From a virus (taxonomy: Duplodnaviria > Heunggongvirae > Uroviricota > Caudoviricetes): a stretch of DNA of 15,345 nt. The stretch lies in IMG/VR virus record IMGVR_UViG_2529292919_000012. One strand, 5' to 3'. Of the stretch, positions 1 through 2,245 are shown one piece after another. The stretch's first letter is position 1. Each line of letters begins with the position of its first letter. A program made the position numbers.

Positions 1-2245
1 AATGAATACACAGTGCTTATTCGTACTAATAAAACACCCAATTTTCTGTTTCTTGGTTGTGTCCAAAGTTATATTCAATATCTGGTGTTGATGTATCAAT
101 ATTCTTCATCCCATCAACAAGAGTTGATACAACAGCCAAATCTTGTTTGATTCTCATCAAATGGTATTTCTTTCGGCGCAATAAACTTTCAATGGCAAGT
201 TTCTTCGTCGGGAATGCAAAAGATCTTTCTGCATTTTTTGCTACTTTCTTAATTGCATATCTATTTCTCCTTTGTTTCCATTCCTGTAACCACTGATTTG
301 GTGCTGGTTTAAAATTAACAATCCAATGCGCAGGAACCAACCATGCATAATGCTCTGTCTGATGAAAAGCTATATATTGAAGTGCGAATATTTTGATCCC
401 ATCTTCTTCAACTGTCGCCTGGAATCTCCAGAAAACAGGCATTCCATCATGTTCAGTTTCTGATTCAGGAAAAGGTACGCTCCATGATTTTGTCATATCT
501 CACCTCAAATAAGTGGTTTGCTGCCTAATTTCATTTTCTGGCGACCAACACAAGTCATCTTGCTGTCAGTTGTTTGGATTTCCGGTAGCCTGCCGCGTAA
601 ATGGCTACGTTTGGAAGACATACACCAGTTTCTGGTTGCTTATGTCCAAACTCATTCGCGTACACAATGGCCGCTCGCTCCAGATTGCGTCTGTATTCTT
701 TCTGTTGCCAGATCACGTCCTGTGCTATGAACTTAATTGGCTTAGCGTCTTCTATGCGCTCAGGCGTTTCGTGAGTACCTTTAGCCTGAATCTGCGCTCT
801 GCTTAGAGTAGGGCGGTGTAATACTTCTGAACTTATTGCTTCTTCGCGGGCCAGTACGCCGTTAGCTAATGCCTTTGCCTTTAAACGCTCACGACGACGA
901 GAACGTGAATTGCCTTTGAACTGAGTTCTGCGTGTCATATAGACCTCCTGATGAACTTTGGTGGTGTGGTCGGTGGGAGACCCATTTCGACCTGTTTCGG
1001 CCTACTTCAATTCGGCAATAGTCCCGCAGGCCTCGCCGCTTTACGTGCGACATATTCCCGTCCATGAACCCTTCACCACACCCCAAAGTTCACTTTGGTT
1101 ATTGCGCTTTGTCAGCGCCGTAGATTCTTGCTTGAATCGTTGTATATTCACCGCCCTGGTGAGTAGTGCGTCCTGCTGATGTGTTTAGTATCACCGACAG
1201 TGGTATTTATGTCAACACCGCCAGAGATAATTTATCACCGCAGATGGTTATCTGTATGTTTTTTATATAGATTTATTTTTTTGCAGGGGTGTGTGGCTTG
1301 GGAGGTGATCGAGAGATCTGAATTGCGATGTTTAGTGAGTTGTATCTATTAATTTTCAAATAAATACAATTGGTTATGTGTTATTGGGTGAAGGGGATCG
1401 TGAGGTAAAGAAAACCCGGCGCTGAGGCCGGGTTGTGTGTTACTTAAGAACGAGTCCGTTTAAGGCATCAAGGATTTTGGAAACATAACTTCCAAAAATG
1501 TAGGCGCAAAATGCGAACACGAAACTGACAACGACCGCAGATGCCTTGATGGTGATTTTTGCTGAGCTAATGCTTGTCTCAATACCTGACAGACGAGAAT
1601 CTACAGATTTTATATCTGACTTTACTTCAGCGAGATCGCGCTTGATGTATTCAACATCAGACTCTAGCTTTGCAACTCTAGCCTCAAGCATGTTACCTCC
1701 GCCGTTTCCTCCACCATGCCGTGAGTATGCATCATCAGTGGAATAGTGTCCAATTGGGCGAGATATGTTTTGATTTGGACGAAGCTGAGCAACCTTGTTA
1801 TCTAAACTCATCGCGAACTGATCCTGTTATCTTCACGTCAAAAAACGAACTTTTTACATCAATTACTTCGCCTTTATCAGGATTAACCAGTGATGCTCTA
1901 ACTTCGAATATCCCAGGCTTGATAATTTTCACCCTTGGGAAGTTAATTCTCATAGAAGTTGATACGATGGTTTCTCCATCGTTGGCTTCTGCTACCGTAA
2001 AAAACTTATGGTTGGAGTACAGTTTTGTGTCAATTGGTATCGGTATTTCTTGAGCATTGAAAACCTCAATGCCTATGGAATATTTTTTTGTAGCCTTAAG
2101 GCCGATAAAAAAAGCGCCAAATGATAGATCCACTTCATGGGAGTCTTTATCCATTTCATAGATAAGAACTGGAGTTACTGGGTTGCCTTCATCCATCGCA
2201 ATCGGAATGATATAAGAAATACGTTCTTTAATCATTTACGTGTTA

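Follow-up and report, generated by a model that had tools for sequence, protein, structure and literature searches.

Lambda carries, between the stop codon of its repressor gene cI and the terminator Timm, the genes rexA and rexB, which are co-oriented with cI, share its operon, and encode one soluble and one membrane protein. RexAB, a proven abortive-infection system, excludes T4 rII and other phages with membrane depolarization, RexB being a multi-pass inner-membrane protein; to our knowledge, its mechanism has gone unexplained for more than 60 years. SieA of the Salmonella phage P22, annotated as a superinfection exclusion protein, is likewise a membrane protein. The stretch that follows the repressor gene is where prophages classically keep their exclusion systems, and BstA has been found there too: this validated abortive-infection protein is encoded downstream of cI in phage BTP1, and the same paper calls the cI–N region a hotspot. 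Here, we examined a 15,345-nt stretch of tailed-phage DNA (IMG/VR record IMGVR_UViG_2529292919_000012; the whole stretch is hereafter called the window), the left 3.3 kb of which is a lambda-type immunity region where two genes, designated orfA and orfB, stand in place of rexA and rexB. We describe this replacement and the gene family to which the pair belongs, and we weigh what the pair may do in the lysogen.

These genes and the hotspot nature of the slot are already known, and the bare observation is not new. In 2008, genes 44 and 45 of the Salmonella phage epsilon34, for which databases gave no matches, were already likened to the lambda genes for their place behind the repressor (“like rexA and rexB”). 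A relative in phage HK544 was deposited with the wild-phage records of lambda immunity regions (EF120455); HK544 served only as a test phage in the paper of Tai. Both proteins have PHROG families, and homologs of orfB have a name given by the Prokaryotic Genome Annotation Pipeline (PGAP). The word “undescribed,” applied to the pair in an initial annotation made from the sequence alone, thus holds only in part. What appears to be new is the family-level picture, namely, an obligate pair that is marked by a signature motif, whose partners and membrane modules can be interchanged and which occupies both the rex and the sieA slots. This family is absent from PADLOC and from the literature searched.

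The orfA–orfB cassette and its two proteins

When the window was compared by BLAST with positions 34900–38700 of lambda, homologous blocks were found at 1148–1434 (pL/oL to the Timm hairpin, 89% identity) and 2247–3267 (cI to cro, 97.8%), and nothing lambda-like lay between 1434 and 2247. Because the homology ends at the first of these positions and restarts at the second, the swapped segment measures 812 bp, which here stand for the 1404 bp of lambda that comprise rexB, rexA, and the cI–rexA spacer. The breakpoints of the cassette are the cI stop codon and the terminator hairpin; the rexA–rexB slot to which the initial annotation had assigned the pair was therefore recovered as an exact exchange. 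The ORF (open reading frame) call returned the same two intact, overlapping minus-strand frames, and their spacing was confirmed by reading the sequence: the ATG of orfA (2233–2235) follows the cI stop codon TAA (2243–2245) after 7 nt, and the ATG of orfB (1809–1811), preceded by AGGA approximately 10 nt upstream, lies in a 14-nt overlap with the end of orfA. In contrast, lambda has a spacer of 112 nt.

A terminator scan of the minus strand from cI to oL detected no terminator-like site besides the Timm hairpin. Promoter-like sites inside the cassette occurred at chance level (6 found, 5.1 expected) and none was positioned to drive orfB; for this reason, an internal promoter resembling pLit is not proposed. 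In the pL region, the promoter scan detected a promoter-like TTGACA-17-GATACT at 1215–1187. The cassette had been called AT-richer than its surroundings, and the GC fractions of orfA (0.372) and orfB (0.427) are indeed below that of cI (0.454); however, lambda rexA (0.402) and rexB (0.425) are similarly low, and the argument from composition is therefore weaker than that from the clean cassette boundaries. The sequence evidence supports the view that orfA and orfB lie in the repressor operon and were acquired separately as a precise cassette swap. Separate acquisition, as first suggested, is also favored by the recurrence of the pair behind unrelated repressors (see below).

The product of orfA lacks a hydrophobic segment (Kyte–Doolittle maximum, 0.81) and, on direct reading, a signal-peptide-like N-terminus, in agreement with its initial description as soluble. 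Its AlphaFold model, built on a 19-sequence alignment, is a confident eight-stranded all-beta sandwich, with a predicted local distance difference test score (pLDDT) of 86.6 and a predicted TM-score of 0.82. No significant family was found for orfA, for which the initial annotation had recognized none, in scans of Pfam, NCBIfam, or PADLOC, but orfA matches phrog_5893 (function unknown) from end to end (E-value = 8.5e−65, positions 1–140 of 140). The family is small, with 20 clusters among 5.8 billion proteins, and a profile search of 1.84 billion representatives gave 19 matches, or 66 with a broader profile. All homologs are single-domain “hypothetical proteins” of 130–180 amino acids from Enterobacterales, with no domain fusions, and their broad alignment contains no stretch conserved enough for a peptide pattern. 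Long repetitive proteins among the profile matches (FliK-like, TQ-ester adhesin, RCC1, and WD40) were dismissed as artefacts of repeats or composition. DUF6941, for which no literature was found, was also rejected, having given weak co-linear matches for two distant relatives, at an E-value of about 0.002, below the cut-off. The structural neighbors of the model are generic immunoglobulin (Ig)-like or E-set sandwiches (GH2 Ig domains, the Wzt carbohydrate-binding domain, adhesin repeats, and RhoGDI/ML lipid-binding domains; TM-score approximately 0.5), from which we read no function, and its best viral matches in BFVD are uncharacterized proteins of 134–142 amino acids, namely, A0A2P1JU14 of Anoxybacillus phage A403 (TM-score 0.65–0.70, E-value = 6e−8) and M1PKK7. 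From the model, we propose that orfA encodes a soluble cytoplasmic beta-sandwich protein, a candidate partner or specificity subunit.

The orfB product matches phrog_6136, also of unknown function, over its full length (E-value = 3.6e−46, positions 1–120 of 120), and its homologs form 73 clusters. Nothing significant was found for it in Pfam, NCBIfam, or PADLOC, in the last of which there were only chance-level matches (CorA-like, E-value = 0.004), and its profile retrieved only generic coiled coils from the PDB. AlphaFold leaves residues 1–39 disordered and predicts a single helix for residues 40–122. The N-terminal peptide tracks the type of the upstream partner, and the Gly-rich hinge (GGGNGGG) that follows it, GGGNGGGN in the window, was found in every family member read. 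Beyond the hinge, one heptad register holds 14 hydrophobic a/d residues, against 2–8 in the other six, and the heptad repeat continues without a break into a single transmembrane (TM) helix. The 13 residues after this helix, SKILDALNGLVLK, form a tail that is conserved in the family alignment. The coiled coil and C-terminal TM helix of the initial annotation were both upheld. The motif ARVAKLESDVEYIKRD within the coiled coil is kept from Enterobacterales to Pseudoalteromonas, Shewanella, Pseudomonas, and an alphaproteobacterium. The predicted topology is that of an N-in, tail-anchored inner-membrane protein with a long, parallel-type coiled coil.

This architecture, a short protein with a coiled coil and then a C-terminal TM helix, is shared with XhlA, and PGAP names orfB homologs “hemolysin XhlA.” Against the XhlA model (Pfam PF10779), orfB scored 19.3 bits (E-value = 0.0013), below the gathering cut-off of 34.7 bits, and 15 of 24 orfB-family members matched it at an E-value ≤0.01 (best, 8.3e−6). 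The ratio of nonsynonymous to synonymous substitution rates (dN/dS) relative to homologs was approximately 0.10–0.21 for orfA and 0.15–0.48 for the orfB N-peptide; in both cases, dS was close to its saturation point. Judged by these ratios, orfA and orfB are under purifying selection.

A modular family behind prophage repressors

The 839-bp cassette occurs in 16 of 5426 complete Escherichia coli genomes, always on the chromosome. In enteropathogenic E. coli (EPEC) E2348/69, the pair is 100% identical to that of the window and lies behind an intact 714-bp lambda-type cI in a lambdoid prophage, with both genes annotated in RefSeq. Pairs with 78% nucleotide identity, genes 45/44 of epsilon34 and 40/39 of g341c, lie directly behind a prophage repressor of another family. 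These are true homologs, sharing orfA (approximately 75% protein identity), the orfB N-peptide, and the Gly hinge with the window; epsilon34 differs, however, in repressor family, in host, and in the coiled-coil/TM module of its orfB (“type II”), which shows that modules are exchanged.

To describe the genomic context of the family, we surveyed orfB homologs on their own contigs, in species-representative genomes (13 loci), and in IMG/VR (80 loci). A hidden Markov model (HMM) of the orfB family matched 107 of 109 sequences, consisting of 108 fetched loci, several of them fetched for other reasons, and the first 6 kb of the window. After the removal of duplicates, 64 distinct pairs remained, and the partner gene of nearly every pair ends between −6 and +20 nt from the start of the orfB-type gene. 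The partner is an orfA-like beta-sandwich in 47 of these pairs, often only 20–30% identical to orfA, and a protein of 100–130 amino acids with the pattern CxxC…CxxC in 8; in several others, it is a protein of about 90 amino acids. An orfB-type membrane subunit is thus common to at least three unrelated classes of partner. Partners of 100–130 amino acids with two CxxC pairs, which are zinc-ribbon-like, were seen at loci L052–L057, L075–L078, L019, L020, L025, and L100, and those of about 90 amino acids, with an SFGYSSFG motif, at L072, L103, and L105–L108.

The association was also seen from the side of orfA. Two proteins matched by the orfA profile, P0103 and P0108, were the partners of the separately found orfB-type genes at L022 and L070, respectively, and a third, P0099, was 83% identical to the partner at L049. 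When orfA relatives from Edwardsiella, Dryocola, Klebsiella, Photorhabdus, and a metagenome were looked up, the downstream gene encoded a Gly hinge, a coiled coil, and a TM helix every time. Homologous pairs were found in many genera.

The gene upstream of the pair is typically a repressor. Among 67 distinct upstream ORFs, 39 matched HTH_3, 26 Phage_CI_repr, 25 Peptidase_S24, 6 Arc, and 2 Mnt; the pair therefore recurs directly downstream of at least four unrelated kinds of repressor (lambda CI, other S24 repressors, short HTH_3 proteins, and Arc/Mnt). The initial annotation had called for a survey of cI-downstream cargo in lambdoid prophages for the same pair, and the pairs surveyed here usually lie behind prophage repressors. 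Exceptions are L014/L015 in Providencia (3023–3869), among tail/baseplate genes of a myophage with a divergent arc-like gene immediately downstream, and L118 in Photorhabdus (2501–3452), beside a tail-fiber assembly gene and a tssM/icmF gene of a type VI secretion system. The few further exceptions upstream of pairs were spurious small frames from the ORF caller.

The two halves of orfB differ in how they relate to the partner. Among the 47 distinct beta-sandwich pairs, partner identity was strongly correlated with N-peptide identity (Mantel r = 0.91, no discordant pairs), and far less so with the identity of the C-terminal module (r = 0.37, 122 discordant pairs). In addition to epsilon34, where a shared partner and N-peptide accompany different C-terminal modules, there are loci (L005, L008, and L014) in which distant partners and different N-peptides accompany the C-terminal module of the window. 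The partner and the orfB N-peptide thus move as a unit, and it is the coiled-coil/TM module that is swapped, a pattern that fits binding of orfA to the N-peptide. Purifying selection on this predicted-disordered peptide lends the binding role mild extra support. As observed across the survey, the family is modular: the coiled-coil/TM gene is constant, the upstream partner varies, and with few exceptions the pair directly follows a prophage repressor gene.

Other occupants of the rex slot, and other sites of the family, are informative. In the wild phage CL707 (EF120459, locus L003; 2643–3548), the rex slot holds CL70704, a protein of 300 amino acids annotated as hypothetical. CL70704 is a BstA homolog (PADLOC, E-value = 1.3e−105), which means that a validated abortive-infection protein fills the rex slot of a lambda immunity region. 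BstA shares the niche downstream of the repressor with orfA–orfB, but it is a single protein of about 300 amino acids that acts at phage DNA replication sites, and neither orfA nor orfB is homologous to it (no match to the BstA HMM, for which CL70704 served as the positive control). In the wild phage HK544, the same slot holds c104/c103, of which c103 matched the orfB-family HMM (E-value = 1.7e−12). Like orfB, c103 has a Gly/acidic hinge, a coiled coil, and a C-terminal TM helix; it is longer (183 amino acids), with an N-terminal region of about 75 residues, and its 93-amino-acid partner c104 is not orfA-like. The HK544 pair is similar to ECs2991/ECs2992 of the Sakai strain and has no PADLOC match. 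Furthermore, the P22-like Salmonella phage UPF_BP1 (KX776161, L110; 2273–3010) carries a 94-amino-acid gene and a 149-amino-acid orfB-family gene between mnt and gene 16, the interval that holds orf59 and sieA in P22 itself (L109; 2889–3972). Because the UPF_BP1 pair occupies the orf59–sieA position, the orfB family also uses the immI exclusion slot, where P22 has SieA, the product of a single gene rather than a pair. This argument is guilt by position, consistent across two independent immunity regions but not proof.

State of the prophage and its other features

The features of the window and of the orfB product are collected in Table 1. The window is a mosaic of sequences found in two prophages of E2348/69: positions 26–3724 match the prophage at 2.62 Mb (99.1%), and positions 3370–15345, apart from an insertion sequence (IS), match a different prophage at 0.73 Mb (99.1–99.8%), with the crossover in the shared cro/cII-proximal region. 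Of the two possible sources of this structure, a recombinant prophage is likelier than an assembly chimera.

Table 1. Positions of the immunity-region genes and sites, the parts of orfB, and the inserted element in the 15,345-nt window
Feature	Positions	Strand	Basis
P22-gp24-like N gene	555-938	-	Pfam N_peptide match
oL1-oL2-oL3 operators with pL	1189-1249 (oL1 1189-1205, oL2 1213-1229, oL3 1233-1249)	.	Sequence and lambda annotation
Timm-like intrinsic terminator, end of the cI-orfA-orfB transcription unit	1413-1434	-	Terminator scan; homologous to the lambda region annotated Timm in wild-phage records
Swapped cassette in place of lambda rexB-rexA and the cI-rexA spacer	1435-2246	-	BLAST against lambda 34900-38700
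orfB, 123 aa	1440-1811	-	ORF call; phrog_6136
orfB residues 92-110, single C-terminal TM helix	1482-1538	-	Kyte-Doolittle 19-residue window peak of 2.11 at residue 92
orfB residues 41-90, heptad coiled coil	1542-1691	-	Heptad register analysis
orfB residues 44-59, near-invariant motif ARVAKLESDVEYIKRD inside the coiled coil	1635-1682	-	Family alignment
orfB residues 33-40, conserved Gly-rich hinge GGGNGGGN	1692-1715	-	G37-G39 nearly invariant in the family alignment
orfB residues 1-32, variable predicted-disordered N-terminal peptide	1716-1811	-	Family alignment; pLDDT <50
orfA, 145 aa	1798-2235	-	ORF call; phrog_5893
Lambda-type cI, frameshifted	2243-2955	-	ORF list and lambda comparison
oR3-oR2-oR1 operators, divergent pRM and pR	2966-3029 (oR3 2966-2982, oR2 2989-3005, oR1 3013-3029)	.	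97.8% homology to lambda and lambda operator annotation
cro	3056-3256		ORF and lambda annotation
IS21-family element, 1948 bp, inserted in a replication gene	5531-7478 (istA 6374-7396, istB 5595-6377)	istA -, istB -	

The cI gene of the window, unlike that of E2348/69, is frameshifted. A run of six T residues at 2882–2887 replaces the seven of lambda (A7 on the coding strand), leaving two ORFs (2782–2955 and 2243–2836) and parting the DNA-binding N-terminus from what follows it; the missing base may reflect genuine decay or a sequencing error in the homopolymer. At one IMG/VR locus (L039), the cI N-terminus is disrupted as well. The toprim/DnaB_C replication gene is split by the IS21-family element into 4741–5544 and 7453–8580, and since this gene is interrupted, replication of the prophage is probably defective, and this would account for the tolerance of a dead cI. 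From its sequence, we regard the window as part of a decaying prophage in which the cassette is still intact.

Two other genes may be mentioned. Between the nin region and Q, the prophage carries as cargo a gene for an LpxR lipid A deacylase (11408–12367, minus strand; Pfam LpxR, E-value = 7e−40), which is probably a lysogenic-conversion gene affecting the outer membrane. Downstream of N, an early-left ORF of 156 amino acids (26–496, minus strand) matched no Pfam family and is annotated as hypothetical in E2348/69 (E2348C_RS13585).

Possible roles in the lysogen

We tentatively read orfA–orfB, at somewhat less than an even chance, as an accessory (“moron”) module in the repressor operon that would be expressed in the lysogen and act by exclusion or abortive infection. 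Several lines of evidence favor this reading: the exact replacement of rexB–rexA with no terminator before Timm; the conserved repressor-linked synteny; the use of the rex and sieA slots; the constant subunit with a variable partner, and the shuffling of modules; and the effector-like features of orfB, with its weak but recurrent similarity to XhlA, together with the purifying selection on both genes. The initial annotation had also singled out homology to proteins of unrelated known function as a sign against such a role, and above threshold none came up in Pfam, NCBIfam, or PADLOC, the similarity to XhlA being sub-threshold. In the mechanism that we envisage, the orfB N-peptide would be the docking site of orfA, which would serve at the inner membrane face as the specificity or sensor subunit. 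Upon infection by another phage, the coiled-coil/TM part of orfB might oligomerize into a membrane lesion of the holin or XhlA type, and the resulting depolarization or early lysis would abort the infection. Unrelated proteins would then follow a RexAB-like logic, and reading orfA–orfB as a “cytoplasmic sensor plus membrane effector” is a plausible analogy. It is an analogy only, because no homology to RexAB or to any PADLOC model was found. The two pairs are alike in slot, orientation, and operon logic, each combines a soluble with a membrane protein, and the genes of both are AT-richer than cI; in contrast, they have no sequence relation, orfA is a beta-sandwich of 145 amino acids, and orfB has one C-terminal TM helix and a coiled coil where RexB crosses the membrane several times.

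A number of points weigh against this reading. No match to PADLOC 2023, RexA/RexB, BstA, or SieA was found for orfA or orfB, and no functional study of any family member came up when the literature was searched by topic, phage name, accession, and locus tag. Guilt by position is weak evidence, since morons beside a repressor can serve other functions, and the generic Ig-like fold of the orfA model tells nothing about what orfA might sense. The unrelated coiled-coil family FlaC_arch matched 18 of the 24 orfB members, and the XhlA signal is no stronger than such coiled-coil noise; because of this and of the score below the cut-off, membership of orfB in XhlA is not established. The link between partner and N-peptide does not need binding, since the N-peptide is encoded right beside orfA, and recombination inside the conserved motif together with DNA adjacency could give the same pattern. 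The cassette is rare in complete E. coli genomes. Finally, the initial annotation had expected both genes to be expressed from pRM with the repressor. Their place in the repressor operon agrees with this, but in the window copy CI-stimulated expression from pRM is unlikely because cI is frameshifted, which leaves basal pRM or pRE as the source of any expression there.

Other explanations draw on much of the same evidence. Non-lethal superinfection exclusion, in which the orfB stalk would hold orfA under the membrane and block the entry of an incoming genome, for instance by attaching to a host channel or to ejected or tape-measure proteins, as with P22 SieA, T4 Imm, or HK97 gp15, is in our judgment unlikely. 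The related pair at the exact sieA position of a P22-like phage, the suitability of a beta-sandwich on a flexible Gly hinge and a membrane-anchored stalk for binding or blocking, and a partner as variable as a specificity determinant would be all speak for it; however, SieA kinship was rejected (hhalign probability, 0.2%, with no sequence or profile similarity), and a coiled-coil motif that is near-invariant across distant taxa exceeds the need of a passive tether. We consider it more doubtful still, indeed quite improbable, that the pair serves the phage’s own life cycle, either by tuning lysis as a holin accessory of the XhlA type, together with a beta-sandwich partner, or as a modulator of the switch from lysogeny to lysis. 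The recurrent sub-threshold XhlA similarity and the PGAP name point that way, as does a recent report that RexA and RexB assist the lysogenic-to-lytic transition. The gene order is, moreover, identical in the Bacillus subtilis prophage PBSX, where the gene for the soluble beta-sandwich protein XepA lies directly upstream of that for XhlA, a small protein with a coiled coil and a C-terminal TM helix; XhlA is reported to be essential for lysis, and XepA has been proposed to act on membrane energization. The PBSX pair, however, is expressed late and adjoins the holin gene xhlB and the amidase gene xlyA, whereas pairs of the orfA–orfB type lie in an immunity region at nearly all loci, and in the E2348/69 prophage, which has the identical pair, holin and lysozyme genes are annotated approximately 8.6 kb away, in the late region. 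XepA also has two sandwich domains and forms pentamers, and orfA has no detectable sequence similarity to it: the orfA-family profile, searched against all PDB sequences at an E-value ≤10, gave two chance matches, neither of them XepA or YomS, and neither of these was among the top structural matches of the orfA model. XepA–XhlA is therefore kept as an architectural analogy only.

A toxin–antitoxin-like addiction module, with orfB as membrane toxin and orfA as its neutralizer, or a host-fitness conversion factor unrelated to phages, would stabilize the prophage or change envelope physiology. An upstream “antitoxin” gene overlapping a downstream gene for a small membrane protein is the order of type II toxin–antitoxin systems, and the pair has stayed intact, and 100% identical to the E2348/69 copy, inside a decaying prophage. 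We nonetheless find this explanation rather improbable, since orfA has no DNA-binding or known antitoxin fold, the pair relies on a foreign repressor promoter instead of autoregulation, and its tie to the repressors of active phages (epsilon34, HK544, and UPF_BP1) points to conflict between lysogen and phage; in any case, toxin–antitoxin and abortive-infection roles are not mutually exclusive. That the two frames arose by chance or are decayed, functionless remnants is scarcely credible, even though the surrounding prophage is degraded: both are intact, homologous pairs occur in many genera, dN/dS is 0.1–0.2, orfA has a confident AlphaFold fold, and RefSeq annotates both genes. Conservation and purifying selection refute this last explanation for practical purposes.

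The exclusion or abortive-infection reading can be widened to the whole family, although we think this broader version unlikely to hold in full. A constant, tail-anchored coiled-coil membrane effector, marked by the ARVAKLESDVEYIKRD motif and distantly resembling XhlA or holin accessories, would be combined with interchangeable cytoplasmic sensors (beta-sandwich, zinc-ribbon-like, or about 90 amino acids long) docked on its N-peptide, and a lysis-type lesion would be turned on incoming phages, making these pairs a widespread class of prophage immunity-operon systems. Such pairs might also descend from a common ancestor with the XepA–XhlA pairs of Gram-positive phage lysis cassettes.

The pair that replaces rexA–rexB in the window is thus a member of a coherent modular family with a recognizable signature, not an orphan, and it is a well-founded candidate for experiment rather than a demonstrated system. 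If it is a defense system, it would represent a small, tractable two-protein family missed by current defense-finding tools, would allow specificity to be dissected with sensor and effector modules already swapped in nature, and might link anti-phage defense to holin-type lysis proteins. If it is not, the family would represent an unexplained conserved function expressed by lysogens of pathogens such as EPEC E2348/69 and Salmonella.

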